Positions 3,640-59,775 of a stretch of 64,000 nt of DNA are shown in pieces. The notes beneath the pieces were generated by a model. The model worked only from the letters and a program-made list of their open reading frames with translations, ran no database searches and was not told the DNA's origin. This DNA is from a virus (lineage: Duplodnaviria; Caudoviricetes): the IMG/VR virus record IMGVR_UViG_3300034061_006011. One strand, written 5' to 3'. The stretch's first letter is position 1, and the number at the start of each line of letters is the position of its first letter. The position numbers and the translations under genes are program-made.

Positions 3640-3918
3640 TTAGTTTTCTATAATATCATTTATGTTAAGATAAAATCTGCCTCTTGCAGACTTAATTAAC
3701 ACTTGATTTTCGATAATCTCTTCTACTGTTCCACCATTCTTGATAAAATCTTTTCCAATTTTTAATGAATTACCAATTATGATATCTGCTACTTCGCAAA
3801 AGTGTTTTAGTGATAAATTTGTTGTAACGCTATTACCGATCAATTTTTTATTTTCATTGATCTCGTTTTGAGCTTTTAGCCATTTCTTAAAATCGTAAAC
3901 AAATTTGTTATTGTTCAT
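3640..3918 (-). CDS. Hypothetical protein with capsid-targeting-like N-terminus
   Basis: YDFKKWLKAQNEINE near the N-terminus. Confidence 0.6.
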   Translation of the reverse strand: MNNNKFVYDFKKWLKAQNEINENKKLIGNSVTTNLSLKHFCEVADIIIGNSLKIGKDFIKNGGTVEEIIENQVLIKSARGRFYLNINDIIEN

Positions 3919-4813
3919 AAAATTTTTCTAAATTGTTTGGTTCAATATAGTTAGCAAACAACAAAGAATTTTTTATTCCAATGTAAGAAATATTTGTGTT
4001 TGAATTTCCAAGTTTTTGCCAGAATAAATTTGCATCAATAATATTTTTTGCAATTTTCTGTTGGGGATAGAAATGAAAATTTGTATCTTCTATTTTCTCT
4101 GTCCCCGGTCTTTGTTTTTCATAAGCATTTATTGGATAAGCAATGCATAATTTTTCACATTTCATTTTAGATGCTAATATTATTGCAGCAGATATTGAAC
4201 TTCTGTATTCATCAATATAATCAGCACTTTTGTGACTAATTGGACTTTCATAATTCTCATCTGGAGTTGTATTGTATCTAAATATTTTGTTTGGATATCT
4301 TTTAATAAATTTGTTGCATGATCTTGAACTTGCTATAAGGAATGGAAATATTCTTTCAGGCAGACAGGTTAAAGAATCTTCAAATGGATTAGTAAAAACC
4401 ATATAGTCTGGTAATCTTTTAGATTTCCAAAATCTGCTAGCACCATAAACTGTGATAATTTTTACATCTTTTGGCAATTGATCTAACCATGCGGTTGAAT
4501 TAGAAAATCCAAATCCATCTGATATTATTAATATTTTTTTGTGGATTATTGTTTCACTAAAAAAATCAAGCATTTGCATTTCTTGATTTTTCATTTCATT
4601 GTCTAGAAGAGTCTTCACTTCTTCTTTGCCATAAAATCCATTAATGTCTTTTGGCACAACATTTGGTTTCAAAAAATTCCTTACCCAAATGTTTTCATCA
4701 GTTAAATAATAATCATTCTTGTTTTTATGCAATTTGATTGTAACATTTTTCTCTTTATTGTTCGGCAGATTTACTTTAAAACTCTTGTAACTCTGCATGT
4801 TATTTTCTATCAT
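3908..4813 (-). CDS. DUF115/MptE-like domain protein (often glycosylation-associated)
   Basis: ILIISDGFGF...KIITVYGA...LPDYMVFTN resembles the DUF115 pattern (GPSL...AVN...PDY). Confidence 0.45.
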   Translation of the reverse strand: MIENNMQSYKSFKVNLPNNKEKNVTIKLHKNKNDYYLTDENIWVRNFLKPNVVPKDINGFYGKEEVKTLLDNEMKNQEMQMLDFFSETIIHKKILIISDGFGFSNSTAWLDQLPKDVKIITVYGASRFWKSKRLPDYMVFTNPFEDSLTCLPERIFPFLIASSRSCNKFIKRYPNKIFRYNTTPDENYESPISHKSADYIDEYRSSISAAIILASKMKCEKLCIAYPINAYEKQRPGTEKIEDTNFHFYPQQKIAKNIIDANLFWQKLGNSNTNISYIGIKNSLLFANYIEPNNLEKFYEQ

Positions 4814-7800
4814 TGAATTCTGTTGATTCCCTTTCTGAGTCCTGTATTTTGTTAAATACAGTTTCTGCTTTAATCATATTAATTATTGGAGTTACATTGT
4901 TCTCAATATTAACTACACTTTGGTTAACAACAGGTTCAATATCAATTTTTTCTATCTTAATTTCTTCTGTAACTGAATCGTTCTCAACAAAATTTATGTT
5001 TTTGACTTCTTCTTTTTCACTCTTAGAATCCTCATATATTTCTACTATTTGAGGAATATTATCAATATTAATTGATTTAGAATCAGATTCTGTAACATTG
5101 TCTTTAGCAACTGGGGTAAAGAGCGTAGCTTCTTCTATATTAGTATTAATTTTTTCAATTTCTTTACTTGAATTCAATTCTGACAATTTCAAAAATTTCA
5201 TTTCTGTTTTTTTGCTTTGATTGTAAACTTCGATTCCAAAATTAACATTCTTCATTTTGTCTTTAGCTTTTATCAAATGTAAATTTGATTTTTCACAAAA
5301 ACGATTGCAATCTCTAAGATTGTCAAATAATCCTAAGTTTTCAAAATAAAGACCAGCATTATCAATGTTTATACTCAAACATTCACACTTGTTGTTGGTT
5401 AATAAAGGATCTTTTACTGCAAAATAAATGTTGCTTTCAGTTGCGTTGAATGCAAAGGATGGTACAGGTTGACAGTTGATATCGTTTTGTTCTTCGCCCT
5501 CAGTCGGGCACGCTTCACCTAATCCGGGACAATTACAAGATGCAGTACAACCTAAAGGAGTGGGTGGTGACAAATTACAGGGTGATGTAGCAACCCATAT
5601 ACCAGCACTACATATTTTGCTACAAAAACAAGATAAACAATTACCTACTGGAGCAGAAGGTGTAGGCGGTGTTGGTGCAGTTGGTGTACACGAAGGATCT
5701 TTTTTACATGGTCTGTAAACAACCTGACCACTTATGCCTCTATTAGAAGGAGGTGGAGAAGTTATGCAAACATCAGGACAGTCATCGCAACAAATACATT
5801 TGTCGTTATCAAAAGTTTCATAGTTCCAACAAGTATTTATAGAAAACCATCTATTGTCTTGTACAGACCATTGGCACTGACAAGAACACTCGTTTTTTTC
5901 GCTTAGAACATCAGTGCAGTCGTTAGTTGGATCATGTTCAGTACATACAGTAAATCTTTGATAGTCGCCCGGTTGAGTCGGTGCTTGTAAATCCTCTAAA
6001 CAATAACATTCACAATTACCAATACAGTTAGAAATTTTTCTCCAGTTTGGATTTGGTATATCTGGGTGACAAGGAGTTCCAAGTCCGGGATCATATTGCC
6101 ATTCACATTGGTTAGGACATCCGGGATCTTTAAAACAACCAGTTGAAGCAAGTTCACCATCAGTTGTTCCGGGATTCTTTGGATGTGTGCAAGAACAACT
6201 AACATTAAAACAGCCTATTTGTTTAGGCATCCATTCTTCAAGTATTGAACTCCATTCCCAGAGACAATTTTCACCACAATAAGATTTACATCCAATATGG
6301 ATTATATCACCAATAAATTGAATTGGTGAAATTGGAATTTCCGATCCATCTCGACATACACAATCTCCATCACATGGTTGATAAATAAACGCACCATCAG
6401 CAGGTTGTCCATATTTCCTACATCCAGCATTATTACCAGTTGCCTGTGCCCACGAAGCAATACCTGAAGAATTAATTCCAAAAATGTATCTACACATACA
6501 ATTTTTGCAGTTTGAAGGATAATATGGATAAAAAGATGGAGTAAGATATATTGGTGTAATACTTGGAGTTAATGGCGCTGTTGGATTAGGAGGTCCGGGT
6601 GGTAAAAATCCGGGAGATGCTGGAACTGGTGGGAAAGCTGGTCCCGGTGGAATTGGTCCTGATGCCGGTGATGCTGGTCCTGATGCCGGTCCCGCCGCTG
6701 GTCCGGGATTAAATATTGGCGATGATGGCGAAGCTACCGGAGCAGAAGCTGGCGATGATGGAGCAGTCGGACCAAAACAAATATTATCTGAAACGCATAT
6801 GTTTATTAAAGCTCTACCAATAATACCAATTTGGTCGCATGTATCATATCCAGTATCATTGTTAAATTTTTGGACATACATCTCGTATTGTCCATCTGGA
6901 TTAATATTTTGAAAAGAAGATAAACCTGTTTTGTATGGAGCAGGTGGAGCAGGAGCAAGCAAACTGATATTTTCATGTCCATTTGGAGATGGATGATAAG
7001 TTCCAGATAACAAAGGAGTGTTAGTACTAACAGGTAATATATAATTTGTACTACTATCATCAAATGTTATATCAACATAATCAGCAATAGTATATGCGTT
7101 TGCGCCAATTGCTAATAATAATACAGCTGTTCCGTCTGGTCCAACCACTAATATTCTTACATCACCTAATCTTTTACTTGGTTTGAAAATTTTTAAAGAT
7201 TCAATTTCCACTGTCATTTTACTTATTGATGGCGTTCCATTACATAAAGATCCTGCAATAGTAAAATTAGCTGGATAAGGATTTGCTGTACAATTTGACC
7301 TAATATTTATTCCACCCGTTCTTATTGTAAAACAATCATTAAAATCAAAATTAACATTACCACCAATGGTTATTGGCGTAACACTTATCAAACTTGGGAT
7401 ATTTGGGAAAGGACTAACAGAAATAAATGAAGGAATGTTTGGAAACGGAGTTACTGTAATCACTGAAGGAATATTAAGATCTGGAGTTATATTAATAGTT
7501 GATGGTATAAATATAGGTCCAATATTAGCAAAAAAGTTTGGAAATACAATCGGAGGAAAGTTAATAATAACAGGATCACAATTTGCCGTAACAATCGGAA
7601 AAGGACCGGGAGTCAAAGCAGTTGGAATAGGTAAAGTAGGAACAGTTGCAGGAGTTCTAGCATCAATTAAATTTCCAGCGCCACCAACATTGTTTCTTAC
7701 TATGCCAGATACAACTGTAGAACAATTTTGATTAACTACCGTTAAAACTGGATCAACAACAAAGTTTGGTGGATAAATATGAGTGCCAATTAAACTGTTT

Positions 7801-8411: not shown

Positions 8412-8444
8412 TTTTATGCCCTACCTATTAATATTTAGTTTAAT

Positions 8445-25613: not shown

Positions 25614-32507
<6,894 letters not shown>

Positions 32508-35161: not shown

Positions 35162-35590
35162 ATGAGTGACCAATCAATTATTCCGCCGCTTCCAATTGTT
35201 ATGCCTGAGAACAATCAAAGTTCACCAGTTTCTGATAATGATCTTCTCGATATATATAATGAAATATTAGATGATCTAAGAAATGACAGAAAGGAAGTAG
35301 ATTCAATTTTAGCTAACTTTGTTGAAATGGTCATGAACGAAGGCGATTCTACTTCATCAAGCAAAGAAGCATTAGTTAATTTGGCAAAATTAAAATCAGA
35401 TATCGCAATAGGAAAGACTAAAATTGCCGATCTTATGACATCTTTGAAACTTAAAGAAAAGCAAGGATCAAAAATTCAAGCAACACAAAACAATAATATA
35501 ACGATAACTGATAGAAGAAATTTGATTGATACCATAAATAAATTAACGAATAAGAAGGAAGCAAAAAATGCCGAATTTGATCAATCTTGA
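35162..35590 (+). CDS. Hypothetical helical protein
   Basis: 142-aa ORF, first of a plus-strand operon. Confidence 0.7.
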   Translation: MSDQSIIPPLPIVMPENNQSSPVSDNDLLDIYNEILDDLRNDRKEVDSILANFVEMVMNEGDSTSSSKEALVNLAKLKSDIAIGKTKIADLMTSLKLKEKQGSKIQATQNNNITITDRRNLIDTINKLTNKKEAKNAEFDQS

Positions 35591-36842
35591 AAGCTGGTTG
35601 TTAAAAGAACAAGAAAACCCAGCACCGGGACCGGAAGCATTGGCTGGATCAGATCCTTCCAGTCTTCCTCCCGAATCGTTTAATAAAACAACTCAGGTAA
35701 GTGTTCCACAGCAAAATCAGCCTATGGATCAACCAACTGCTAATCTTGAAGAACCTAAATCACCAGACATGCCCAAAAGCAAAGACGTGTCTGATTTTAG
35801 TTCATGGAAGAATAAATTCTTCAAAGAAAGTATTAAAAACGATCCCAACACATTATTACAAATGATAAATTCTATAAGAGATGGAGAATTATCTTCTTAT
35901 CAGAAAAAGTTTGTAGAAGACAATTTGCAAATTGTCTTCCTAAGACAAAATGCAAATATTAATAAAGCATCTGGAGAAATGAGAAAGAAAATACGAGATG
36001 ACTTGGATATGGCTAATCCCGGCACATCTCTTGCAAATCACTTTTCTTCTGTTCTAAGCACAATGCCAGAACTTATTAATACTTTTATAAGAATTTCTGG
36101 ACTGGGAAGTAACAAAGCTGATCTTCATAGAAAGTATATTGCATCTCTGATCGGAGCAATTCAAGTTGGATCTGGAGCACAACAAGAAGATATTATTTAC
36201 AACGAAAAAACATTTTCAATTAGAATTTCTACTAGATTTAATAGTAAATTTGGTTTGATTGATGTTGGTCGCTGGACCCTTCAACAAGATGATCCACAGA
36301 AGTATTTGGCTGAACCAGAATTAGAAAAATTAGACTCTGGAGCACCTGAAGAAAAAAGAGTTTTAAGGCATAGAATTATTGTTGAATCAATAGCAAACTC
36401 TTTTGAGAAGAGAGTTTTTGTGACCAATGTGCTTGCTGATAATGGCACTGTTTACTTTGTTGGAATGGATCTGTCAAATATTCTTAGAAGTGGATATGAC
36501 AACGGTGTTTTCAATGTTCAATCATATCAAAATGATGCATCAGAAGCATTATTTGATACAGATGGTAATTTGGTAACACTTCAAGATATAAAAATTCAGT
36601 ATGAAAAAGAAAGTGGAGAAATGGATGAGAACGGTAGTCCTGTGAAAGATAGGACTGAATTCTTAGTCAAGAAGGATGGTATTTTATTCATCAATGCTTC
36701 TCTTGAAACATTGATGGATGCTGCTGGCAATGTCAATGGATTAAATGTCAAAGAATTACCATTTAATGGCAATCCAAGTGATTTGGTTAGTCTAACACGT
36801 TGTGTTCCTTCAGCACCTGAAATTATTTTAAGGAACTGTTGA
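35568..36842 (+). CDS. Hypothetical protein, possible internal head protein
   Basis: 424 aa; N-terminus NLESWLLKE followed by a P/Q-rich linker. Confidence 0.7.
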   Translation: MPNLINLESWLLKEQENPAPGPEALAGSDPSSLPPESFNKTTQVSVPQQNQPMDQPTANLEEPKSPDMPKSKDVSDFSSWKNKFFKESIKNDPNTLLQMINSIRDGELSSYQKKFVEDNLQIVFLRQNANINKASGEMRKKIRDDLDMANPGTSLANHFSSVLSTMPELINTFIRISGLGSNKADLHRKYIASLIGAIQVGSGAQQEDIIYNEKTFSIRISTRFNSKFGLIDVGRWTLQQDDPQKYLAEPELEKLDSGAPEEKRVLRHRIIVESIANSFEKRVFVTNVLADNGTVYFVGMDLSNILRSGYDNGVFNVQSYQNDASEALFDTDGNLVTLQDIKIQYEKESGEMDENGSPVKDRTEFLVKKDGILFINASLETLMDAAGNVNGLNVKELPFNGNPSDLVSLTRCVPSAPEIILRNC

Positions 36843-36843
36843 T

Positions 36844-37347
36844 ATGATATTATTCAATGAATATGTTAACAGGCATCATTTTATGGCGAAGAAAAGACTT
36901 CGCCTATTGAGGCGTGTATTAGAAAAAGACGGTCTTGAAGTTGAAGATTTTACTCATGATAATCAAGACCCTTATATATTTGTTTATTCCTATCCAGTAT
37001 CCACTACGTTCCAAGGTGTAAGATTTTACATGCATGGAGAAATATTAGCTTTCAGGACACAAAAGAAGCCCGAAACGCAACCATACGGCGAAGCTTACGA
37101 ACTTGATGTACAAACAATGTTGGTTGATGTATTTGAAACAGAAGATGACAAATCTGAAAAGCATATTACGAAAATTTTGATGAAGTTGATTAGCAGAGAA
37201 GTTAGAAATCATTTTAAGAAAGAAAAGGTTGCAGAAGAAGAATTATTGACAGGACAGATCAGTAATGCTAAAGATGCAGCTGGACAGATAGTGATTAGAA
37301 ACACAGGAACTGATTACAGTAACACGGTGTTCAGTAAATTCAATTAA
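36844..37347 (+). CDS. Hypothetical protein
   Basis: 167 aa; begins MILFNEYV. Confidence 0.7.
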   Translation: MILFNEYVNRHHFMAKKRLRLLRRVLEKDGLEVEDFTHDNQDPYIFVYSYPVSTTFQGVRFYMHGEILAFRTQKKPETQPYGEAYELDVQTMLVDVFETEDDKSEKHITKILMKLISREVRNHFKKEKVAEEELLTGQISNAKDAAGQIVIRNTGTDYSNTVFSKFN

Positions 37348-37355
37348 GGTGAGAA

Positions 37356-40841: not shown

Positions 40842-42251
40842 TTAACGGCTAACAGTTATTGAAAACGGTATTGCGACAGAATTCAAACTAGGATTTTGAT
40901 TAAGTTTTTCAGTTTCATTGACACCAATTTTGAAATTAGTAGTTTTATGAAATGGGGAATGAAACTTGTAATTTTGTTTGATATGAGAAAATAAAAATTC
41001 TTCACCAAATGATGGTCCGTCTGTCATATCTTTAGAAAAAGAATATCCTAATGCTCTATCAACTGCGTCTCCTATTCTATATTGATATAGGTCTGACCAA
41101 GACATTACATCTTCTTTGTTCATTGGTCTGTCATTTCTTGCAATTGTAACAAAGCCTGAAACAGTTACTTTGCCTGATTGATCATAATCTATTTTTTTGA
41201 AAATTATTTTTGACTGTTCAGCGTTTTGACCCCATGAAAGCGATGCACCCGTAAATCTGTTTTTAAATGCATTAATTGCTCTATTTTCTTGTGCGCTTTG
41301 TGATTGTACTTGTTGTACCTGTGCATCAGGTATAGCTGAATCACCAGCATTTTGAGGAAGCGCACCAATCGCACCAAGACCTAATGCTCCAGCAAGAGCA
41401 ATATTTCTTCCCTGCCTTGCAGCAAAACTAGCTAAATCACTAACCATATTCTTCAATGAAGAATTGGAAGATCTAGCTAAAGAATTGCTAAATATTTTCT
41501 TGACAGACTCGCCACCAGAAGAAAGAGCTTGTTTTACTTTCGGTTCAAGTTTAGTAGCAATGTCTTTCTCTTCATTGTCTAATAATCTAATTTCTATTTT
41601 TTTGTCAGCCTGATTAAGCTCACTTACGTTCCTTATAACTTCTTGTTTAAATATTTTAAAGAATGTCTTAGTAGTGTTTAAATCAAAACCTTTTGTAATT
41701 TCATCTTTAAAAGCATCGACGGCTTTTGATAAAACATAACCAGAATTATACATACGATAAACTTGGAGTGCTTGGTATGGAATTTCAAAATAATAGTTCA
41801 GAATGTCATTTATAGTATTCTTATCATACTTGTTTTGCTCAAACTGTTTTCTTAATGTTTCTTTCATGTGAATTAAAGATAAAGCATTTCGTGCAGAATT
41901 GGCAAATTCTTGTGTATCTTGTACTGTTTTTAATATCGTTACTATTCCTGTAAATATAGTTTTAGGACTAAAAGTAAGAGCAGCATCCACTAGTTCAACA
42001 ACATTGCCTCCCAATTTTTTTGCACCAGTACCAGCAGCAGCAGTTGTTATATCAGCAGCATCTCTACTTCCTGCGCTTGAACCTGTTAAAGCTCCAAATA
42101 CTGGTCGGAATCTGTCCAATAAAGATTCTTTCAAAATAGATTCTGATCTACTAAACCAGTCTACTATAGCTTCCATGTAAATGACATCTTCTGTCAATAC
42201 ACTAATTCTTTCCTGCTCTACAAAAAAACTCTTAAAAGATTTGGTTTTCAT
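40842..42251 (-). CDS. Hypothetical protein with capsid-targeting-like start and internal hydrophobic segment (start revised to MKTK)
   Basis: MKTKSFKSFFVEQE; RNIALAGALGLGAIGAL segment. Confidence 0.7.
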   Translation of the reverse strand: MKTKSFKSFFVEQERISVLTEDVIYMEAIVDWFSRSESILKESLLDRFRPVFGALTGSSAGSRDAADITTAAAGTGAKKLGGNVVELVDAALTFSPKTIFTGIVTILKTVQDTQEFANSARNALSLIHMKETLRKQFEQNKYDKNTINDILNYYFEIPYQALQVYRMYNSGYVLSKAVDAFKDEITKGFDLNTTKTFFKIFKQEVIRNVSELNQADKKIEIRLLDNEEKDIATKLEPKVKQALSSGGESVKKIFSNSLARSSNSSLKNMVSDLASFAARQGRNIALAGALGLGAIGALPQNAGDSAIPDAQVQQVQSQSAQENRAINAFKNRFTGASLSWGQNAEQSKIIFKKIDYDQSGKVTVSGFVTIARNDRPMNKEDVMSWSDLYQYRIGDAVDRALGYSFSKDMTDGPSFGEEFLFSHIKQNYKFHSPFHKTTNFKIGVNETEKLNQNPSLNSVAIPFSITVSR

Positions 42252-45535: not shown

Positions 45536-46626
45536 TCCATCATAACGATTTCTTCAACTGTTTTGACTTCTAGTTTTTCCCAAAGATCTTTATTAAGGAA
45601 TATGTGATCACATGGATCAGATCCAATAGGTAAATATCTACCTCTACATCTGTTATTGAAAACAGTTGTAGGGATGCCACAAAGTAAACTGTAAGACTTC
45701 AACCATGTGTCAGCAGATATTACTTTTTCTACGGAATGAAGTATCTTTAAGAATATTGATAAATCTATGGGAGTGCTAGATTTATTTCCTGTCATTCTAT
45801 TTGAGGTAAGAAACCAATTGTTTTCACGATTTGGTTTCCATTTATAGAATTCTTTATCACCATCAGATCCAGTTGTTATTACATTGTATCCAAGACCAAG
45901 ATATTTATTAACAATGCAATCGTATTCAAAAACTTCTAAATATCTTTGTCTGTTTGAATCTCTTACTGAGCCGCTTGGTTGAATTATTATTGATTTTTGA
46001 CTTTCAAAATGTGGATGCTTGCCAAACTTTTCAATCCAATTAGTTTTAAAAACCATTCTTTGTTTGTAATAGTTTATATCTCTGCCCCAGTCACCGTAAT
46101 CTAATCCTTTTGCAAGATGTCCGCTTGCTTTAAAATTAATCTTTTTTATCATATAGTCGTAAACTACATTTGCATTTTTTGAACCCATTAAGTTTCTTGC
46201 AACGTAATTATCAAGTCTGAAAAATTGTAAAAATTCTCTACAGAAATCCATACTGCCAGTATTAGCAAAAAATGCAACTTGTGCGTTGGGATCTTCATGA
46301 CAACATGCAAGAAGAAGAATTAAGTCGCCTGTACCACCAAAATTTAAATACCAATTTTTAGAAGGTAACAAAAATTCTTTCAAGCCTCTTACAGCATTGA
46401 AAGCAATATTCTCTTCTAAAAGTTTTCTTTTATTTGTAGATAACTGATCTCTTTTTATCGTGCTTATGATGGTGTGTTTATTAGAAACAGGGTTTCTCCC
46501 CACAGGGGGAGAAATTGTTTCATTCAGCTTTTCAACATTCTTGTTTTGTTTGAACTTGGCTTCAAACTGAGCTTGCTTGAGGAGTCTTTCAATATCTTCC
46601 CGCTTAATATTACTCTGGTGATTCAT
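45532..46626 (-). CDS. GT9-like glycosyltransferase
   Basis: GGTGDLILL; IIIQPSGS; ILHSVEKVISADTW. Confidence 0.7.
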   Translation of the reverse strand: MNHQSNIKREDIERLLKQAQFEAKFKQNKNVEKLNETISPPVGRNPVSNKHTIISTIKRDQLSTNKRKLLEENIAFNAVRGLKEFLLPSKNWYLNFGGTGDLILLLACCHEDPNAQVAFFANTGSMDFCREFLQFFRLDNYVARNLMGSKNANVVYDYMIKKINFKASGHLAKGLDYGDWGRDINYYKQRMVFKTNWIEKFGKHPHFESQKSIIIQPSGSVRDSNRQRYLEVFEYDCIVNKYLGLGYNVITTGSDGDKEFYKWKPNRENNWFLTSNRMTGNKSSTPIDLSIFLKILHSVEKVISADTWLKSYSLLCGIPTTVFNNRCRGRYLPIGSDPCDHIFLNKDLWEKLEVKTVEEIVMMD

Positions 46627-46900
46627 CTGTTGGTCTGCTTTTTAAATATCTGTTTAATGCTGTCATAATTCTTCCTTTAATATCAGGATCATCCACAAAT
46701 GGAATCATTTTTTTAACAATTGATGCCAACTTTGTTGCATCTAAACCTTCGAAAGCAGTCATCAAAATATTTAGACCACCTGTTCCAGCAGTCCCAAGTT
46801 CTTTAGCTTTTGCTTTGTAGTCTGTAATTGCAGCAGAAGCACTTATGGGAACATTTTCATTAAACTGCTGACACCATTCGCCAAATTTCTTAATAGCCAT
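46610..46900 (-). CDS. Small protein with capsid-targeting-like N-terminus
   Basis: MAIKKFGEWCQQFNE. Confidence 0.65.
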   Translation of the reverse strand: MAIKKFGEWCQQFNENVPISASAAITDYKAKAKELGTAGTGGLNILMTAFEGLDATKLASIVKKMIPFVDDPDIKGRIMTALNRYLKSRPTDESPE

Positions 46901-47037
46901 TGTTAGCCTTTCATATTTTTACATATCTTGTTCAAAATCATCAGGTCTCATTATGTGACGCTTTTTTGGTCGTTCTTCAAATTCGTCATCACTACTATGA
47001 TATTTAGTAAGATATTTCTTTATTTTGCTACGCCAAG
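46896..47037. repeat. 142-bp direct repeat, copy 1
   Basis: Matches 47803-47944 with 3 mismatches. Confidence 0.95.
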
Positions 47038-47060
47038 AAGAATATTTAATTTCCCAATAG

Positions 47061-47807
47061 CTAAAGATTAGTTTTGGGATAAAGTATTATGTCACAAGAA
47101 CTATGGTAAGGATATTGTTTAATCATTCTTTCTTTAGATATAGGTGTATTTTTTTGATCAAAAACATTGTAACCAAGTTCATATATGTGATCAATAAATA
47201 AAGGTATGCCTCCATGTTTAATATGATCAATGTAAAGAGAGAGTTCTAAAAGAATGATTGGTTTAAATTTATCAATTGTTTCTTTTGCCCCAAGAAGAAC
47301 TTTGTGTTCATAACCTTCAACGTCAATTTTCAATAAATCTACACGATTTAGATTCTTGCAGTAATCGTCAAGTGTAATTAATTCTGTATCAAAAACAGTT
47401 GGTTGTAATTCAAGAGCACCGGGACTTACTGGAAGATTTATTTCTTGTCCATCTCCACACATTACCCATGAATTGAGCAATTTAACATTTTTAAGAGAAC
47501 TCTTTGAATCGCTAATTCCAACTTGATTATAAACACATTTATCTCCAAATGATTCCAATAATTTCTTACTGCTTTCGATCATGCATGGAGATGGCTCAAA
47601 TAAATGAACTTTTGAATATCCTAGTAGAAGAAAAGAATGAGCCATTCCTCCTATGTTTGATCCTACGTCTAAAGCAACACTTTCATTGTCTTTGAGTGCT
47701 TTTTCCATAGCTTGTTGAAAAGCTGGACCATTTGAAGCCATTGATTGATTTTCAAGGGATTGCTGTGGTGGTTTGTTTTTTGAAGGTTTGTTGCCTGAAT
47801 ATGCCAT
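47061..47807 (-). CDS. FkbM-family methyltransferase
   Basis: ALDVGSNIGG, HLFEPSP, LITLDDY, DLLKIDVEGYEHKVLLGAKETI. Confidence 0.92.
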   Translation of the reverse strand: MAYSGNKPSKNKPPQQSLENQSMASNGPAFQQAMEKALKDNESVALDVGSNIGGMAHSFLLLGYSKVHLFEPSPCMIESSKKLLESFGDKCVYNQVGISDSKSSLKNVKLLNSWVMCGDGQEINLPVSPGALELQPTVFDTELITLDDYCKNLNRVDLLKIDVEGYEHKVLLGAKETIDKFKPIILLELSLYIDHIKHGGIPLFIDHIYELGYNVFDQKNTPISKERMIKQYPYHSSCDIILYPKTNL

Positions 47808-47944
47808 TGTTAGCCTTTCATGTTTTTACATATCTTGTTCAAAATCATCAGGTCTCATTATGTGACGCTTTTTTGGTCGTTCTTCAAATTCGTCATCACT
47901 ACTATGATATTTAACAAGATATTTCTTTATTTTGCTACGCCAAG
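47803..47944. repeat. 142-bp direct repeat, copy 2
   Basis: Contains the 3' end of the upstream gene, the RBS and the FkbM start codon. Confidence 0.95.
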
Positions 47945-48146
47945 TAGCAACTTTTTGTTGATTAACATCAAGGATGGCAGAGAAACCCCTGCCATCCCCG
48001 ATTACACGAAGAAAATCATCCCAGAAAGAATCTCCACCAATATCAATACCCCGTGCTATTAGCTCCAGAGCTTGCTCATCGGTACGCTTTCTATCTTCTT
48101 CCTTATAAGATCGAATACTTTCATTTAAACTAGCAAAATTTGCCAT
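47826..48146 (-). CDS. Small hypothetical protein (start revised to MANF)
   Basis: MANFASLNES; starts 1 nt after the upstream TGA. Confidence 0.7.
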   Translation of the reverse strand: MANFASLNESIRSYKEEDRKRTDEQALELIARGIDIGGDSFWDDFLRVIGDGRGFSAILDVNQQKVATWRSKIKKYLVKYHSSDDEFEERPKKRHIMRPDDFEQDM

Positions 48147-48147: not shown

Positions 48148-48459
48148 TCACCACTCAATGCTAACGACTTTTAACAAATCACTGGCGGTCCCAGCTGCAT
48201 ATGTTCTCTTTAAATAGAGTGCATTTAAACCATAAGCAACAACAGTATCCATGTTTTTTCCAGCAATATTAGCACCAGAACCTGTGCCACCTTCTGAACC
48301 ATTTGTCAAAGATGACAACCAAGATGATCTTGCATTAACTTGAGCAGAAGCTTCTGTCACAGTTTCATTACCAACCAAATTAATATTATATGGGAGAGAT
48401 GCACTCTCTGGATTAGCTAAATTTAATGTAAATGTAATTGTAGGTTTTGGATTAGCCAC
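48148..48459 (-). CDS. Small hypothetical protein, possibly structural
   Basis: 103 aa, GTG start with AGGAG RBS. Confidence 0.65.
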   Translation of the reverse strand: MANPKPTITFTLNLANPESASLPYNINLVGNETVTEASAQVNARSSWLSSLTNGSEGGTGSGANIAGKNMDTVVAYGLNALYLKRTYAAGTASDLLKVVSIEW

Positions 48460-48667
48460 GGTTTCTCCTTTTTTTATTATGTTTTCTATATCTATCTTTC
48501 TTAGCGCAATTTATTCCTAAAAATTTGCAATCAGATACAGGAACCTCACCTAATGGTCTGGCTTCAACAGCTCCATATTTACTTTTTAAACCAGAATTTT
48601 GCATGATGGCATCATTGTAATGACTGCCTACAACTGGTCCACCTGCCCATTCCCAAAAAGTTAACAT
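48452..48667 (-). CDS. Small basic-tailed protein (start revised to MLTFWEW)
   Basis: TAAATA-N4-ATG; K/R-rich C-terminus. Confidence 0.6.
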   Translation of the reverse strand: MLTFWEWAGGPVVGSHYNDAIMQNSGLKSKYGAVEARPLGEVPVSDCKFLGINCAKKDRYRKHNKKRRNRG

Positions 48668-49523: not shown

Positions 49524-50828
49524 ATGAGACATTTTCATCCTACCACTGTACATCTAATGCGTGAATGTGCAACCTTGTTTTGCAAAACAAAAATAGACCC
49601 ATATCTTTACCTAGAAAGATTCATAGAAGTAAACAAGTCTTTCTTCGTAGAAAATGCACAAGTCAAATTCGCCACCCTACTGCTAGAAGCAGATGCAGCT
49701 GGTGGTAGAGACTGGGATCAATACATGAGACAAATGCATGCCTATTGGACAGGAGGACAAGCAGGCATGACTAAAGAAAAATCAGATATATCATATAGCT
49801 ACAATCAAGCTATGAAACATATAGGAAATATGTTAGAATTAGTTAATCAGAATCCAGAAGCTGATGATCCAGCTGTTTTAAGACAAGTAAAAAACAATCT
49901 TAATAAATTAAAATTAAGTTTTGATAATGTCAAACCAATGATTGACAATGTCAGAGACAGAATTATGAATGTCGCTGTTAATAAAATGCAAGGAACCGCT
50001 GCTCCTCTTGCTGGATCTGTTGATTTTAGCCAATTTAGCAATCTGAAAGATGAACAAGTTTTCCCAAAAATGGCAGATATAATCTCAAGGAATCCAGCTG
50101 CTAATACGCCTGAAGGTAAATTCTTGAATATGGTCAAAAACAATCCACTAAGATTCGGTGATACTGCAATAAATGATGCTAAGACACAGCTTCAATTTGT
50201 TGATGAAAGATTAGCTAAAAAAATAATAAAAGACCAAAGATTGATTAGAACCAATGTTATGAGGTCTGGATCGAGTGCTGGAAAAATAAAAATTTACAGT
50301 ATACTTAAAAACAGTTTATTTGGGGTGTTAACACCAGATATAAAATCAGTTTTGATAAAATTTTTCGGAGACGAAAATGCTGTGTTATTGGCATTCTTAA
50401 AGTTCAAAAATATTATGCCACAACAAGATGCACCAAGTAGAATGGAGACTAATCCAACAAAAATTCAAGAAAACAATCAGAACATTGATCGCATACAAAA
50501 TAAATTAACACCAATAATAACCAGTCTAAAATTAAGAATACCTGCAATTACAAACTTGAAAGATATTGTTAAATATGTAAATAACAATAATCCTCCCATC
50601 AATGATCCTACAAATATTATAAATAGAGTTGCAGTTGCAATGGGACCGGGTACAAACCCAGTAAATCTTGCAAATAGTTTTAAATTTGTATTAGATATAA
50701 TTAATAACTATGGTAACGTACCACCCGCTAACAGAAAGTTTTTTAAAGCACAAAACGAAAATTTTAAACTACTATATCAAATGTTAGATAATTTCAGTGC
50801 TGCCTTAGCTGGGTTGCCAACTCCTTAA
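49524..50828 (+). CDS. Hypothetical helical protein, possible internal head protein
   Basis: TATAAATA-N4-ATG; LLLEA protease-like site. Confidence 0.7.
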   Translation: MRHFHPTTVHLMRECATLFCKTKIDPYLYLERFIEVNKSFFVENAQVKFATLLLEADAAGGRDWDQYMRQMHAYWTGGQAGMTKEKSDISYSYNQAMKHIGNMLELVNQNPEADDPAVLRQVKNNLNKLKLSFDNVKPMIDNVRDRIMNVAVNKMQGTAAPLAGSVDFSQFSNLKDEQVFPKMADIISRNPAANTPEGKFLNMVKNNPLRFGDTAINDAKTQLQFVDERLAKKIIKDQRLIRTNVMRSGSSAGKIKIYSILKNSLFGVLTPDIKSVLIKFFGDENAVLLAFLKFKNIMPQQDAPSRMETNPTKIQENNQNIDRIQNKLTPIITSLKLRIPAITNLKDIVKYVNNNNPPINDPTNIINRVAVAMGPGTNPVNLANSFKFVLDIINNYGNVPPANRKFFKAQNENFKLLYQMLDNFSAALAGLPTP

Positions 50829-50977
50829 CGTCTCTTTTTCTTTTTCTTATTGCATCCTAAATCGGACATAGCACCCCAAACTTGGAAGTTTGGGTTGTTT
50901 TTGTCTTTACAACTAACAATAGCTCCAGTTCCAGCCATTTCTAATTTTAATAACCATTTCTTAAATTCGATATTCAT
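50825..50977 (-). CDS. 50-aa basic peptide with capsid-targeting-like N-terminus (start revised)
   Basis: MNIEFKKWLLKLEMAG...KKKKKRR. Confidence 0.6.
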   Translation of the reverse strand: MNIEFKKWLLKLEMAGTGAIVSCKDKNNPNFQVWGAMSDLGCNKKKKKRR

Positions 50978-50981
50978 GATC

Positions 50982-50989
50982 ATATATAT
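50982..50989. promoter_or_regulatory. Palindromic ATATATAT, putative bidirectional late promoter
   Basis: Exactly 4 nt from an ATG on each strand. Confidence 0.5.
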
Positions 50990-50993
50990 TCTC

Positions 50994-51254
50994 ATGAATT
51001 TAAACTTTAAAAAATGGCTCACTGAAGCCGCTCCAGCCGCTCCAGCACCAGCAGCGGCTACTGCTCCATCTGGTGGTGGAGGATCGCCCGGAGGCGGTTT
51101 AACAGGCACAGGAACGGCATTTAAATATACACCATCAAATAGTAATAAAAATAATTGGGCAAAGACACCAGATCAATGGTACAAAAGAGATATTGCAAAT
51201 AAATTTAACAAAGGATGCAGCGGATCACCTTGTCCCAAAAGTCTAACTGGTTGA
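50994..51254 (+). CDS. 86-aa peptide with capsid-targeting-like N-terminus (start revised)
   Basis: MNLNFKKWLTEAAPAAP... Confidence 0.6.
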   Translation: MNLNFKKWLTEAAPAAPAPAAATAPSGGGGSPGGGLTGTGTAFKYTPSNSNKNNWAKTPDQWYKRDIANKFNKGCSGSPCPKSLTG

Positions 51255-53752: not shown

Positions 53753-53773
53753 CATCGACCATGAAGATTAATC

Positions 53774-54049: not shown

Positions 54050-54050
54050 A

Positions 54051-54524: not shown

Positions 54525-54549
54525 AGCGAAGTTAGCAATGCTCAGAGCG

Positions 54550-56007
54550 TCATACTCTGAAATTTGCAATATTTAATCGGGCATAGAACTTTGCGCCTTC
54601 CCTTAATAACTTTTTTCCGTATCGAACAAGCAAACCACGTCTTGGGCAGAATGATTCTGGGTCAAGAACGACTGGGGTCTGGGTGAGTGGAACGTATGGG
54701 CAGTAGAAGTAACCGCTGTCCATGTAGCTGTCGCCCTTATAACCCATGAGCAACTGGTTGCTTGGGAAGAGTGGATCTTTGTATAGACGATAACGGTTAG
54801 CGACCGTACCGACATACTGAACGCCGAGTGAGCTTGTGAAGGTCTCAGAAGGTGCAGGAGCGAAACCAGCAGTTGCTGTTTCGAAGATTGAAGCAACTTC
54901 AGGTGAAGTCACGATGAAGTTTGCGCCGCCACGGAGGGTCTTCCTGTGGATCACGTTAGAAACTTCGATGATCTTAACATAAAGGGCTTCGTACTTTTCC
55001 TTGATGGTCTGACCGATTGCAGTTGAGAAGTCCCAAGCTGCGACAGTACCAGCGTTATTACGGAGGTCACCAAGAACTTCTCGGTCGATTTCGAGGTTGA
55101 TTTCCTGTGCAAGAACAGCGGTCAACTCAGCTTCAGCATCAAGATTGTGCTGACTACGGAGATCTTGCTGTGCTTCATAGGACCATACAGCCTTGAGCTT
55201 ACGGGTCTTAGCAACGATATCTTCTGATTCAATAACGAGGTTGATTTCAGGAAGATCCTGATTGCACTCCATATTGTACTCATAAGAGACTGTGCAGTTG
55301 TTTGAACCGGGTGCATTATCCCAAGTGAGTGTGAATTCGCCAGTGGTAAGATCGATGCTACCAGTTGTTGCTCTGTTAGCAGGTGAACCAATTGCGGTAA
55401 AGGTGAAGGTGCCGTTTGAAGAGACAACGAATGTCTGAACAGCGGTTGAACCATCATAAACAGTACCAGTAATGGTGCCAGCAAGGATTGGAGTGTGTTC
55501 AAGTGGGCTGAATACGCTAGTGGTGTCTGCGCCTGCATCAGTGCTGGTTGCTTCGTTGTTTACGAACTGTGAAGAGTAGTAAACGTCGAGGTTAGCAGTA
55601 CCATCAGCAAGCTGCTGGAGTGAATTAATATCATCTCCGGGGAAACCACCGTTGTTGCTAGCTCCACGAACGCTACCCTTGTTAGAGGAATAACGGAAAC
55701 GGAGATAGTACACCAAACCGGTTGGTCCGAGTAGTGGCTGAACGCTTACAATCTTATTAGCGATCAACTGTGGGTAAATTCTGCGGACGAGAGGAATTGA
55801 AATCCTCTTGAACTGTGCGACATCTGCGGTGTCGGTTGAAACTTCGTTAAATAGCTTTTCTCTTTCGAGCATTAGGCGTTGGTTCTCAAGAAGCACTGCG
55901 GTTGCAGCACGGGTATGAGTATCTTCGATACCCCTGAGAAGACCAGTTTTTGCCCAACGGCTCTCTAGTTCTTTAGCTTCGTTCAAATAAGTTGAATTGA
56001 GACTCAT
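54550..56007 (-). CDS. gp23: Major capsid protein, T4 gp23-like
   Basis: LVRRIYPQLIANKIVSVQPLLGPTGLVYYLRF; KTRKLKAVWSYEAQQDLRSQHNLDAEAEL; GYFYCPYVPL. Confidence 0.97.
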   Translation of the reverse strand: MSLNSTYLNEAKELESRWAKTGLLRGIEDTHTRAATAVLLENQRLMLEREKLFNEVSTDTADVAQFKRISIPLVRRIYPQLIANKIVSVQPLLGPTGLVYYLRFRYSSNKGSVRGASNNGGFPGDDINSLQQLADGTANLDVYYSSQFVNNEATSTDAGADTTSVFSPLEHTPILAGTITGTVYDGSTAVQTFVVSSNGTFTFTAIGSPANRATTGSIDLTTGEFTLTWDNAPGSNNCTVSYEYNMECNQDLPEINLVIESEDIVAKTRKLKAVWSYEAQQDLRSQHNLDAEAELTAVLAQEINLEIDREVLGDLRNNAGTVAAWDFSTAIGQTIKEKYEALYVKIIEVSNVIHRKTLRGGANFIVTSPEVASIFETATAGFAPAPSETFTSSLGVQYVGTVANRYRLYKDPLFPSNQLLMGYKGDSYMDSGYFYCPYVPLTQTPVVLDPESFCPRRGLLVRYGKKLLREGAKFYARLNIANFRV

Positions 56008-56034
56008 TGTAGTTACCTTTCTTTATTATAAAAC

Positions 56035-56916
56035 TTACTTAGATTTCTTAACTCCTGAAAGAACAAGAAGATCGTTGACTTCGTTTAGTGAGTTTGATTC
56101 AGAAATAACCTGAACATTCTCAGTTACTAACTGACCTCTCCCGCTTGCAACTCTTGCTTTCATTCCACGCTCTTTCTGCTCACTGATGACTTTCTTAGTG
56201 CGATCAACACGGTGTTCACCAATGACTTCGGAAGCTCTACGAACACTTTCATTCAACTTTGTATTCTCTGTTGAAAGACGAATGTTCCTTGCTTCCATGA
56301 TTCTTAACTGACCCTTAAGATCTTCTGATGACTTACGGGCTTCTTCAAGCTTGCCGGAAGTTGAGAAGAACTGTTCGTCGCCGGAAATGTAATCGGAAGC
56401 AATGTTTACGATCTTATCAAGAGCAACCTTGTGTTCGACCATTCTTGGATCAGCCATAAGGTCTGTCTTAGCTTGTTCGTAAATTTCTGCGCCCTTGATC
56501 TGGAGGAATTCGTCAACCTTGTCAACGATGTATTCCTTCATTTCCTTAAGCTTGCCATCATATTCTTCGTATAGGTCGCTTTCGACGCTATTCTTATTGC
56601 TTCTTTCAGCAAGAAGCATCTGATATGCTTCTTCGTAGCCTTCTTCAAGAGCAGTTTCAAATTCCTGCTTCTGATTGCCAATTCTTTCCTGAAGATCAGA
56701 AATAATTGCGTAGGCTTCGTTATAGCCATGATAGGCGGTCTTTTCAGCCTGAGAAAGTTCATTTGTAAGCTGAACATAAGCCTCTTCGAGATTCTTATTG
56801 TATTCCGCTTCCATTTCTTTCTTTGACTCTTCAATCATCTCAGAAACAGCCTGAGCAACCTCGTTGATCTGGTCTGCTGGAAGAAGATTCCTTAATGAGC
56901 TTAAAATCTTATTCAT
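56035..56916 (-). CDS. Prohead scaffold/core protein, gp22-like
   Basis: Acidic coiled coil between protease and MCP, with many (I/L)xE sites. Confidence 0.8.
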   Translation of the reverse strand: MNKILSSLRNLLPADQINEVAQAVSEMIEESKKEMEAEYNKNLEEAYVQLTNELSQAEKTAYHGYNEAYAIISDLQERIGNQKQEFETALEEGYEEAYQMLLAERSNKNSVESDLYEEYDGKLKEMKEYIVDKVDEFLQIKGAEIYEQAKTDLMADPRMVEHKVALDKIVNIASDYISGDEQFFSTSGKLEEARKSSEDLKGQLRIMEARNIRLSTENTKLNESVRRASEVIGEHRVDRTKKVISEQKERGMKARVASGRGQLVTENVQVISESNSLNEVNDLLVLSGVKKSK

Positions 56917-56917
56917 C

Positions 56918-57562
56918 TCACAGTCTCCCTATTATGTTACTGGTTTTATTCTTAATTAGCCCGCCTAAACAAGCTATTACTGCGTCCTTATTAACACTAT
57001 GTATGCGTCTGCTTTCATTTTTTGCAGAAAAATTATCATAATTATAATTTTCTTTAGTAACTTTCTTCTGAAATGCCTGATAAGTAGACGGATCAGCAAC
57101 AGCATCGAATGTGATGAGCTTGTATGATTCTGTAATCATCAAGACACCTTTTTCATTTGTTGTACCGTTTCCGACACCTCTTGAAGAAATGCCGACACGC
57201 ACACCGTCATTAATAAGTGCTTTCAGTATTTTTCCATGTGGTGTATTTAGGATTTCGCCTTCACCCATTAGGGTTTTGCCTTCCCACCACAATTTTGTTA
57301 CAACATGAGAAGCTTTTTCAAAGTGAATAATTGAATCAGAAGGGTGATCCAATTCGCCAACCAAGCCTCTTGCGTTAACACAGTCCATCAGCTCCTGAAC
57401 ATTCTTGTCTAGGACGCTGAAACCATATGATCTATTGTTTTTATTGACTTCATCAGCCTGCTGGAATTTACCACGAAATTTTGTGAGTCCGCCAATTGCG
57501 GACTCATTTAAATTCATGACTATACCGCCGCTATTGCAAGAATCGACTAGCAGCATATTCAA
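56918..57562 (-). CDS. gp21: Prohead protease, T4 gp21-like
   Basis: NKNNRSY, GELDHP, NTPHGKIL, GISSRGVG, FDAVADPS. Confidence 0.95.
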   Translation of the reverse strand: MNMLLVDSCNSGGIVMNLNESAIGGLTKFRGKFQQADEVNKNNRSYGFSVLDKNVQELMDCVNARGLVGELDHPSDSIIHFEKASHVVTKLWWEGKTLMGEGEILNTPHGKILKALINDGVRVGISSRGVGNGTTNEKGVLMITESYKLITFDAVADPSTYQAFQKKVTKENYNYDNFSAKNESRRIHSVNKDAVIACLGGLIKNKTSNIIGRL

Positions 57563-57563
57563 A

Positions 57564-59342
57564 TCAACCCCTTTCGCTACCCTTAAGTAGTTTAAAGCTG
57601 TTTGCTAAAGTCATGCCATTGGATGGAATATAAGGATTTTTCAACTTGTCCCAAGTGTCTGGACCATCATCTTGACCAAGGACATCACTGTCAGCGTCAA
57701 TAGTCTTTTCACCATGAATCTTGAAATCACCAGCCTTGGGTACATATGGGTTTCTGACATTTGGATAAACATCAGATCCGTCATGTGTAAGATAGCCCTG
57801 CTTGAGGTCTTCTATACCTTGTTTATCGTAAGACTTGCCATCACTAACGAATGGTGATCTTGTTGAAGCGTACTTGCCGGGAGCGCCATCAATCTTGGAG
57901 TACTTTGACATAGATTCGATATCACCTGTTACAGTGTGACCAACTTTGTCAGAAACCTGCCATTCACCGCTCATTGGAAGATTAGCTAATGCCTTTAGCA
58001 TAACAGCGGCTTCTTCTAGAACATCAAGATCAAAAGGCTTCTTTCCAGATAAAGAATGTTCAATGTCAGACATATAACCTGAAATTTCATGCTTAATACT
58101 TGCATCTCCGAAGTGTTCAGCAAGACCAGCAAGACTGTTCAAGGACTTGTATGCATCCTCAAAAGCCATTCTTTCGGTTCTCTTGACTTCTTCAAGCTTG
58201 TCAACCATGATTTCAGAAGCATACTTGAAACCTTCATAACTCTTTGATTCAAACATATCAGCAAGCTTGTAAATCTGGTTTACCTTGTCCTTATAATTGT
58301 CGTAGCAGGTTCTTAGTAAACCTTCTGCCAAGAACAAGCAGGTTTCGTCATCGAAATTCTTGACATTTTCGCTGATCAAAGTATCACTGATCAACTTAGC
58401 CAATTCATTTTCGGTCAAGTAAACAATGCTTGGGAAAGCAGCTACTACATTTTCAACAGTTTCCTGTAGCTTAGATGCATCACTCATTGCATTGCACTTC
58501 TTCATATCTTTGCAAGCAAGACCCCAGTGAGCATTGTGACCAAGAAGCCTCATAAGGTCTCTCTGGTGCATTACATCAGTGTTAAGAGTCTTCCAATTGA
58601 AAGAAAGGATCTTTGCTTCATTTCTTAGTTGAGCACGGGGAATAGCAACTGTGACAACATTACCAAGCTTGTCCTTAGCAACTTCATTGAGGCTAGGAAC
58701 ACCGTAAGTTCTGAAATCAACATAATCAAGAATATTCTTGGAAACAGCTGCCCATTCCTTCAAATTCTTTGAAGAAACTTTGCTGATAAAGTCCATCTTC
58801 TTCTTGCTCTTATGCTTGCCCATCTTCTCGTCACGCTTGTCGCTCTTCTTGCCCTTGCCCTTACCCTTCTTAGCTGCTTTCTTCTTAAGATAAGCTGCAA
58901 ACTGTGGAGGAATCTTACCCTTTTTGCTACCCTTTGCTTCGTTGATAACGCCTTCTTGTAGGCTAACACGAACGTAAGGAAGGTTAAAGTAGTTTGAGAA
59001 AAGGTCGCTGGCTGCATCCTTTTTGTCGTCAAGAATTGAGTCAACCATTCTATCGAGAATATTCTTGCCTTCATTGACCTGAGAAGACTCATCAACAACC
59101 AATTCTTCGATGTTTTCAAGCAAAAGCTTGGAATCATCAATAAGATAAGTTGCATGAACGAGTGTACCCTGATCTGTAGCAAAAGTGGCTTCATTTTCTG
59201 TGATGCCAAACAGAGCAATATTATCTTTGCCCAATGCGTTGGCAATGGAATCAGAAGCTTCTGTTAACTCTTTTTCTGCTGTTTGAAGAAACTTGCGCTC
59301 GATCTGCTTGAAGACATCATAGTCGATGAGTTTTCTCTTCAT
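57564..59342 (-). CDS. Prohead core-associated protein (gp67/gp68 position)
   Basis: Between portal and protease; Lys-rich insert after INEA; capsid-operon codon bias. Confidence 0.6.
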   Translation of the reverse strand: MKRKLIDYDVFKQIERKFLQTAEKELTEASDSIANALGKDNIALFGITENEATFATDQGTLVHATYLIDDSKLLLENIEELVVDESSQVNEGKNILDRMVDSILDDKKDAASDLFSNYFNLPYVRVSLQEGVINEAKGSKKGKIPPQFAAYLKKKAAKKGKGKGKKSDKRDEKMGKHKSKKKMDFISKVSSKNLKEWAAVSKNILDYVDFRTYGVPSLNEVAKDKLGNVVTVAIPRAQLRNEAKILSFNWKTLNTDVMHQRDLMRLLGHNAHWGLACKDMKKCNAMSDASKLQETVENVVAAFPSIVYLTENELAKLISDTLISENVKNFDDETCLFLAEGLLRTCYDNYKDKVNQIYKLADMFESKSYEGFKYASEIMVDKLEEVKRTERMAFEDAYKSLNSLAGLAEHFGDASIKHEISGYMSDIEHSLSGKKPFDLDVLEEAAVMLKALANLPMSGEWQVSDKVGHTVTGDIESMSKYSKIDGAPGKYASTRSPFVSDGKSYDKQGIEDLKQGYLTHDGSDVYPNVRNPYVPKAGDFKIHGEKTIDADSDVLGQDDGPDTWDKLKNPYIPSNGMTLANSFKLLKGSERG

Positions 59343-59412
59343 TTTGTTCTCCCAAAAAAAACAATGTTTAATTCACATAGAGTGCGAATTTTTTTAATTC
59401 TAACTCATATCT

Positions 59413-59775
59413 ATGCAGGTGATTAAAAAAAAGAAGGATATTATGCAAACATTTAGCGATTTTATTGGTAAAAGATTTGAATACAATGAAAACAGCGATT
59501 CAAATCCTCAAGTAGTTAGTCAAAAAAATGCAAAAAGTGCCAAAGATTTAGAAGATATTATTTCAAAAATTTTAAACAACACAAACTACCACAAAGAATT
59601 TTTAAATTTATTATCAGATTTTATCGAAAGCAAAGATGATCAAGGTTTGCAACAAATGATGAATCATTTTAAACAAAATAATAAAATAGATAATTTTAAT
59701 GATGATAGTGGACTTGGAACACTATCAGGCGTTCTTAATAGACCAAACAATCTACCACCAAATATGGGTGGCTAA
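59413..59775 (+). CDS. Small protein with capsid-targeting-like motif
   Basis: MQTFSDFIGKRFEYNE. Confidence 0.6.
   Translation: MQVIKKKKDIMQTFSDFIGKRFEYNENSDSNPQVVSQKNAKSAKDLEDIISKILNNTNYHKEFLNLLSDFIESKDDQGLQQMMNHFKQNNKIDNFNDDSGLGTLSGVLNRPNNLPPNMGG

Follow-up and report, generated by a model that had tools for sequence, protein, structure and literature searches.

The 64,000-nucleotide stretch of DNA analysed here (IMG/VR virus record IMGVR_UViG_3300034061_006011, Caudoviricetes), referred to below as the window, is a part of an uncultured giant phage with T4-type head genes. At least seven and probably eight to ten of the genes in the window begin with a short peptide resembling the capsid-targeting sequence (CTS) found on T4's internal proteins (IPs), and these peptides are probably a T4-style CTS placed on new cargo. 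The genes concerned encode a flavoprotein, a DEDDh exonuclease and proteins of 469, 86, 50, 167, 110 and 424 amino acids (aa); proteins of 96 and 106 aa perhaps also belong here. Since these N-termini match the peptide by which proteins are loaded into the T4 head, the tagged proteins are probably capsid cargo. A signal of this kind is already known as the T4 CTS, and it is the density of the tags and the nature of the cargo that differ here.

N-Terminal Peptides of the Window

The sequence of the T4 CTS is given in PMC8442874. In the T4 record AF158101, ipII and ipIII begin with MKTYQEFIAE/A and ipI with MKTFKEFTSTTTPVSTITE/A, the latter being cut at residue 19 (here and below, the slash marks a cleavage site or a candidate for one). 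In the passage of PMC9026906 that cites Mullaney and Black (1996), residues 4 and 7 of the CTS are assigned to targeting and residues 8 and 10 to processing.

The original prediction counted about 12 open reading frames (ORFs) of the window as starting with such a peptide. All 12 peptides are present at the ORF starts where they had been placed, and for several of them the choice of start codon is backed by stops in orthologues or relatives or by independent gene calls (see below). The 12 proteins are also unrelated, as claimed: there is no mutual BLASTP match past residue 16 at E<=1, and the proteins belong to differing Pfam families or to none. The interpretation as T4-like tags is borne out in that the likeness is specific to the mapped T4 residues and the accompanying set of head genes is present. 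The number 12 was too generous, with seven or eight solid tags, two retained through orthologue conservation only and two weak ones.

Seven ORFs have the T4-type core at the extreme N-terminus, i.e., Met, two to four residues and then aromatic-x-x-aromatic-aliphatic. In the four canonical cases (flavoprotein, exonuclease, 469-aa ORFan and 86-aa protein) the core is followed by x-Glu, and in three others (the 50-, 110- and 167-aa proteins) it has an atypical end. The 424-aa protein is graded as a conserved variant. The conservation-only grade consists of the 96- and 106-aa proteins with N-termini ending in FNE or LNE, and the weak grade of the ORFs with MLTFWEW and YDFKKWL. An extreme N-terminal position is held by ten of the 12 peptides, and the 92-aa ORF carrying YDFKKWL fails in this respect.

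Aromatic residues at positions 4 and 7 are found in exact register in MISFIEYLAE, MINFFDFINE, MILFNEYV, MQTFSDFI and MLTFWEW, and displaced by one or two residues in MKTKSFKSFF, MNLNFKKWL and MNIEFKKWL. The 424-aa family has Leu and Trp in place of the aromatic pair, and MANFASLNE has no such pair. Endings with an aliphatic residue at 8 and Glu at 10 are canonical in YLAE/A, FINE/S, FFVE/Q and WLTE/A; the Glu comes later in MQTFSDFIGKRFEYNE/N.

Enrichment at Gene Starts

The pattern used for counting was fixed beforehand from the mapped T4 residues as aromatic 4, aromatic 7 and aliphatic 8 (M-x-x-aromatic-x-x-aromatic-aliphatic). In the window, it occurs at 4/67 N-terminal ATGs versus 1/313 internal ATGs (p=0.004). 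The same pattern was found at 12/128 N-terminal versus 1/317 internal ATGs in the related contig G001, at 5/113 versus 0/314 in G002 and at 19/238 versus 0/649 in G003. The genes of the 86- and 50-aa proteins do not enter the enrichment counts, being masked by a spurious long ORF in simple ORF calling. Comparison with shuffled N-termini, proposed in the original prediction, gave 0.26 ORFs expected and four of 62 observed, and none of 1000 composition-preserving shuffles reached four. When all decamers starting with Met were scored against the T4 CTS by ungapped BLOSUM comparison, the N-terminal and internal ones were set apart only moderately, and the position-class tests were used in its place. 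Rescanning the window in all frames revealed no additional tagged gene.

It is very improbable that these peptides arose by chance in an AT-rich proteome with abundant Phe, Lys, Asn, Ile and Tyr. The guanine-cytosine (GC) content of the window is indeed ~33%, and one strict tag match falls inside a 2297-aa protein. Furthermore, the looser cut-site criterion also used in the original prediction, any [LIF]xE within residues 6-16, is not enriched (12/67 versus 41/313, p=0.2). However, the shuffled sequences, the internal-Met controls and the three relatives all concur against chance, and orthologues retain the motif across 50-95% identity. Chance is thereby refuted for the core set and is a live explanation only for the MLTFWEW and YDFKKWL ORFs and, in part, for the 96- and 106-aa proteins.

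Tags of the Two Enzymes

The flavoprotein scores 56.8 bits against PF03358 (cut-off 24), and its fold matches AzoR, NQO2 and SsuE at template modelling (TM) scores of 0.4-0.6. In the AlphaFold2 model, with a mean predicted local distance difference test (pLDDT) value of 89, the tag is a low-confidence helix at residues 4-11, followed by a linker at 12-18 and strand beta1 from residue 19. In the phosphate-binding GS(P)R loop that follows beta1, G26, S27 and R29 are invariant. The gene sits ~0.8 kb past the 3' end of the capsid gene.

The N-terminal pattern M-x-x-F-x-[ED]-Y-L-x-E-A-T is kept by about 100 homologues of the flavoprotein with 50-95% identity. Some of these orthologues read MKTFAEYLAE/A, compared with MKTYQEFIAE/A in T4. 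Residues F4, Y7, L8 and E10 are retained across synonymous codon changes, which argues for selection acting on the peptide and not on the DNA. Homologues with identity of 46% or less have N-termini that are 8-10 residues shorter and carry no tag. Two of the tag-less homologues are located on contigs of other giant phages, surrounded by replication or metabolic genes and away from head genes, and none of the genes neighbouring them (a neighbourhood of similar GC) is tagged. Cellular homologues had been expected to lack the extension; the tag-less relatives that could be placed turned out to be phage-borne too.

Two further observations concern this family. On the metagenome contig L124 (2231-8867), a tag-less homologue comes right after a trio of DUF444, SpoVR (with an intein) and PrkA genes in a giant-phage-like setting. 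Residues 74-94 of the flavoprotein form an insertion in which, across an alignment of 46 sequences, five Cys (C75, C78, C87, C91 and C93) are invariant and His88 is almost so. The sequence of this Cys cluster suggests a metal or iron-sulfur site, atypical of AzoR/NQO-type reductases.

The exonuclease scores 37.9 bits against PF00929 (cut-off 24). Its fold resembles RNase T, DnaQ and the exonuclease domain of DinG, and the PolC exonuclease domain matches it from residue 25 in the alignment with PDB entries. Residues D35, E37, D145, H224 and D229 (DxE of Exo I, D of Exo II and H-x4-D of Exo III) are invariant in six sequences. In the AlphaFold2 model, residues 1-14 have pLDDT of ~50-60 and are essentially unstructured, outside the DnaQ fold. 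Tag-like N-termini were found in five of five exonuclease homologues. Judging by the alignments and the predicted structures, the tag is an add-on outside the catalytic fold in both enzymes.

Head Genes and Protease-Type Sites

Genes for an S77 protease, a gp23-type capsid protein, a gp20-type portal and a scaffold-like protein all co-occur with the tags in the window (Table 1). Capsid-protein relatives in IMG/VR comprise 339 loci, of which 80 were fetched as related loci; their contigs reach 533 kb, with GC of 0.33-0.56 among those checked. Among deposited records, the nearest is that of a 595-kb uncultured phage, which is without annotation and has a capsid protein identity of 76%.

Table 1. 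Candidate tagged genes and head genes of the window
Feature	Position	Strand	Start or tag	Remarks
92-aa ORF	3640..3918	-	YDFKKWL...INE/N	weak as N-terminal tag; DFKKW[LM] in two orthologues
424-aa clade-wide protein	35568..36842	+	MPNLINLESWLLKE/Q	variant tag; 736 homologues
167-aa protein	36844..37347	+	MILFNEYVNR	targeting core F4, Y7, V8; Arg, not Glu, at position 10
DEDDh 3'-5' exonuclease, 285 aa	37356..38213	+	MINFFDFINE/S	Pfam RNase_T from residue 32
469-aa ORFan	40842..42251	-	MKTKSFKSFFVE/Q	independent gene calls start at MKTKSF
96-aa protein	46610..46900	-	MAIKKFGEWCQQFNE/N	weaker candidate; 66%-identical orthologue shares first 18 residues
106-aa protein	47826..48146	-	MANFASLNE/S	weaker candidate; 63% orthologue keeps MANFASLNES
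71-aa basic ORF	48452..48667	-	MLTFWEWAGG	weak; F4, W7; no aliphatic at 8, no nearby Glu
50-aa basic protein	50825..50977	-	MNIEFKKWLLKLE/M	intact ORF in orthologues 86-90% identical
86-aa protein	50994..51254	+	MNLNFKKWLTE/A	Ala/Pro/Gly-rich linker after tag
Flavodoxin-fold FMN/quinone-reductase-like protein, 287 aa	52889..53752	+	MISFIEYLAE/A	Pfam FMN_red from residue 19
Major capsid protein, gp23 type	54550..56007	-		Pfam Gp23 (PF07068) 7.9e-87, domain from residue 63
Scaffold-like protein, gp22 position	56035..56916	-		between protease and capsid genes; 80/80 related loci
Prohead protease, gp21 type (Peptidase_S77)	56918..57562	-		Pfam PF03420 7.7e-26; PHROG 207
592-aa head-module protein	57564..59342	-		position of T4 gp67/gp68; 73/80 related loci
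110-aa acidic protein	59443..59775	+	MQTFSDFIGKRFEYNE/N	between portal and 592-aa genes
Portal protein, gp20 type	59795..62308	-		Pfam Portal_T4 (PF07230) 2.5e-73

The gp21 that had been ascribed to the window is thus found as an S77 protease, and the two sites reported for the capsid protein are there as well: YLNE10/A and LFNE55/V, both candidate protease sites. The capsid N-terminus reads M-x-x-N-x-x-[FY]-L-N-E/A, and L-[MIF]-N-E/[VTS] stands just ahead of the Gp23 domain; the N-termini most often seen among orthologues in the 80 related loci have both sites as well. A tag-type motif at residues 7-10 of the capsid N-terminus, beside a conserved cut site, ties the motif to the head protease.

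Sites of this type are also present in the other head proteins. Orthologues of the protease conserve LNE/S near residue 20 (T4 gp21 has LIE at residue 9), and the scaffold-like protein contains 22 [LIVMF]xE sites in 293 aa, including QINE19/V. Within the first 25 residues of the window ORFs, the motif [LIFMYW]NE shows ~5-fold enrichment, a value that is supportive only, the motif having been defined post hoc. Its matches include the capsid, scaffold and protease proteins and five of the candidates.

The scaffold-like protein had no family match, and the 592-aa protein matched no known family. Conserved features of the latter are the start MKRKLI.[FY]D.F and ELxE28/A, and it is possibly an internal protein or part of the prohead core. 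An intein, matched by Pfam Intein_splicing at residues 120-336 of 837, interrupts the portal gene.

Other Tagged Genes and Their Surroundings

Close relatives of the 469-aa ORFan among 1.8 billion representatives were limited to proteins with 85% identity and the same start. No Pfam, PHROG or usable Atlas match was obtained for it, and it is absent from five related contigs. The orthologues of the 86-aa protein begin with MILNFKKWLIE/A and MNLNFKNWLLE/A. In the orthologues of the 50-aa protein, the differences are mostly silent (14/20 and 18/28), and the antisense long frame scores equally. The two genes are a real divergent pair, because the competing long frame has a stop in the relative L004 while both ORFs are kept. 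Only 16 bp separate the start codons of these divergent tagged genes (50975-50996), and each promoter must therefore lie within the other gene.

The tagged genes of the 424-, 167- and 285-aa proteins are consecutive on one strand (35568-38213), the 424-aa gene being the first. In the 424-aa family, hydrophobic-x-x-W-[LIVMF]-x(1-3)-E occurs within the first ~20 residues of 97/120 among the homologues listed, as in MSKHALEEWLAE/A and ALEEWLAE/A, with a low-complexity linker after it. The start M-x-x-F-x-E-[FY]-[VI]-[ND]-R is kept in 167-aa orthologues of 35-80% identity; this tag may be left uncleaved or may be cut at LFNE6.

Nine orthologues of the 110-aa protein have MQTF.[DN]FI..RF...E/N, some of them with a stop just upstream. 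In 40/52 related loci, the slot between the portal and 592-aa genes is occupied by a small gene of divergent orientation whose product begins with a T4-like tag (such as MKTFQDYVSLKE), and beyond the tag the body of the slot gene diverges past recognition.

The FNE site of the 96-aa protein is of the same type as that of the capsid protein. An orthologue of the 106-aa protein with 34% identity keeps F-x-x-L-x-E/S; its start, MANFASLNE/S, is closer to the short gp24-type propeptide of T4 than to an IP-type tag. The only match of the 71-aa MLTFWEW ORF is an identical copy.

A direct repeat of 152 nt (46896-47047 and 47803-47954; 95% identical, 907 nt apart) brackets an FkbM-type methyltransferase gene at 47061-47807. 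The repeat is made up of the 106-aa gene's 3' end, the intergenic region and the ribosome-binding site. In a near-identical strain contig, a relative of the 96-aa gene is found close beside the 106-aa gene. The methyltransferase between the repeats looks like a cassette insertion with target duplication.

The 2297-aa protein (25614-32507, minus strand) contains the internal stretch ...KLANE/MNIFASYLSE/IKD at residues ~2098-2115, tag-like and placed after a cut-site motif. This stretch could serve as a processing linker if the protein is a giant virion component, or could be due to chance; this part of the protein has no orthologues among the relatives fetched.

Baseplate-like genes occupy the left half of the window. 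Its middle (35-54 kb) is variable and contains three methyltransferases along with many ORFans. An anchor-gene search for contigs related in this region yielded an identical fragment as the sole match. Rfam and tRNA scans of the window gave no matches. The T4 late promoter TATAAATA is present in 11 copies in the window, with no consistent placement before tagged or head genes, the capsid gene included.

Tags in Related Phages

In the relatives, tags are arranged in islands of 14-17 nearly consecutive genes starting with MxTFKQFLE[NS]. Such islands were seen at 83-98 kb in G003, the IMG/VR contig behind L022, and at 42-58 kb in G001, the contig behind L009. A 532-kb relative with GC of 52%, scanned in full, showed three strict tags among 850 N-terminal ATGs. 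This scarcity implies that tag abundance varies within the clade or that the consensus is different there.

A shared N-terminus might also be unrelated to the capsid and reflect translation initiation, a linker for recombination in cassette swaps or a tag addressed to another phage structure or protease. The tagged genes do lie in variable regions with cassette turnover, such as the repeat-flanked methyltransferase insertion; tags cluster in islands in the relatives; and the IP loci of T4 are polymorphic (PMC9026906). However, what is conserved is the amino-acid sequence, with codons varying synonymously, little DNA is shared between the tags of different genes, and the motif matches functionally mapped T4 residues. 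An origin unconnected with the head would also have to account for the same motif at residues 7-10 of the capsid protein itself, next to its conserved cut site, and is considered improbable.

Comparison with Known Systems

The peptides of the window resemble those of the T4 IPs: 10-19 residues directly after Met, positions 4 and 7 aromatic, position 8 aliphatic and, in several of them, Glu at 10 or later. The late Glu, as in IPI, is found in the 110-aa protein. As in T4, the tag stands on otherwise unrelated proteins, and the phage has head genes of the gp20, gp21 and gp23 types together with a scaffold-like gene. The density of tags is different: by the same pattern, T4 has 4/341 N-terminal ATGs in 150 kb, compared with 4/67 in the window and up to 19/238 in relatives. 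The cargo is different as well, with a flavoprotein, a DEDDh exonuclease and a clade-wide 424-aa protein here and small basic anti-restriction proteins among the T4 IPs. Unlike the T4 IPs, the tags here have spacing variants, and those of the window are known from sequence alone.

In T4, the short N-terminal peptides of Alt, gp24, gp22, gp67, gp68 and gp21 end in [LI]-x-E and are cut by gp21 (MELITELFDE/D, MAKINELLRE/S and MLKEQLIAE/A). MANFASLNE/S and the N-termini of the capsid and protease proteins of the window are of this kind. The class is without the aromatic 4/7 core and by itself is statistically indistinguishable from chance in the window. Alt resembles the enzymes here in being an enzyme that the T4 particle carries.

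In phiKZ-like giant phages (SPN3US, phiKZ and 201phi2-1), propeptides of ejection and inner-body proteins are cut at A/S-x-E by a gp21-related protease (PMC5694885, PMC10052503). The likeness consists in many head-loaded proteins being trimmed after Glu by a homologous protease. The phiKZ-like propeptides are, however, mostly longer than 100 residues and end in A/S-x-E, whereas the window has T4-like decapeptides with aromatic-[LIF]-x-E and head genes much nearer to those of T4. It has already been suggested in reviews that T4-like phages can load a variety of proteins by means of the CTS (PMC9026906), and the literature searched contained no paper describing such tags in uncultured giant phages.

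Proposed Loading Pathway and Its Significance

By homology with T4, the tag would form a short amphipathic helix with the aromatic residues 4 and 7 and the aliphatic residue 8 on one face. This face would bind a component of the scaffolding core, and the protein would in this way be built into the prohead. The S77 prohead protease would then cut after the following Glu (aromatic-[LIF]-x-E, here often x-N-E), freeing the mature protein inside the capsid, from which it could exit with the DNA at infection. Core binding, cleavage, retention in the virion and injection are all proposed on the strength of the T4 analogy.

Alternatively, the tagged proteins could be assembly or core components that are lost by degradation or expulsion as the head matures or are active only inside the capsid, with no injected payload. 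The 110-aa tagged gene does lie within the head module, and the 424-aa gene is clade-wide, as would be fitting for a structural or core component. This explanation is nevertheless unlikely, given that both enzymes have compact, confidently predicted folds, unlike degradable coiled-coil scaffolds, and that T4 proteins cut once behind the tag remain in the head (PMC8442874).

Several points weigh against the reading of the peptides as a T4-style CTS on capsid cargo. A 3'-5' exonuclease packed beside the genome requires an explanation, e.g., inactivity in the capsid. The dominant tag in the relatives has Glu at 9 (MxTFKQFLE/N), which misfits the I/L-x-E rule of T4, so the cleavage rule is not settled here. 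Departures from the T4 pattern within the window are Arg10 in the 167-aa protein, the non-canonical spacing of the 50-aa protein with Glu four residues past the core, and the Glu-less MLTFWEW; the orthologues of the 92-aa ORF have the motif 18-30 residues away from their starts. The nearest cultured phages share only ~32% capsid protein identity. Finally, T4 gp61.1 (AF158101; L128, 18966-19130) starts with MKTFKEFIKE/D, a near-perfect CTS recovered by the same scan as ipII and ipIII. This protein is annotated only as hypothetical, and the motif alone is therefore no proof of packaging.

A wider form of the T4-style interpretation is possible but tentative. One T4-type address tag would serve as the general loading system of the clade, with dozens of swappable unrelated proteins being packed, and the five-Cys flavoprotein and the exonuclease would reach the host cytoplasm together with the DNA before phage gene expression.

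If the tag works as in T4, the proteins carried in the capsids of uncultured giant phages could be listed from sequence only, and the list for the window would include two enzymes of kinds unknown as T4 head cargo. The flavoprotein family is a natural comparison in this respect, with copies that are tagged and neighbour the capsid gene and others, in different giant phages, that lack the tag. The small tagged slot gene of the head module is a second one, and both are testable cases of a phage recruiting an ordinary enzyme into the particle. Should the clade-wide loading be true, the delivered enzymes could act against host defences or signalling nucleotides, and the tag would be a marker by which injected effectors of uncultured phages may be recognised in sequence data.

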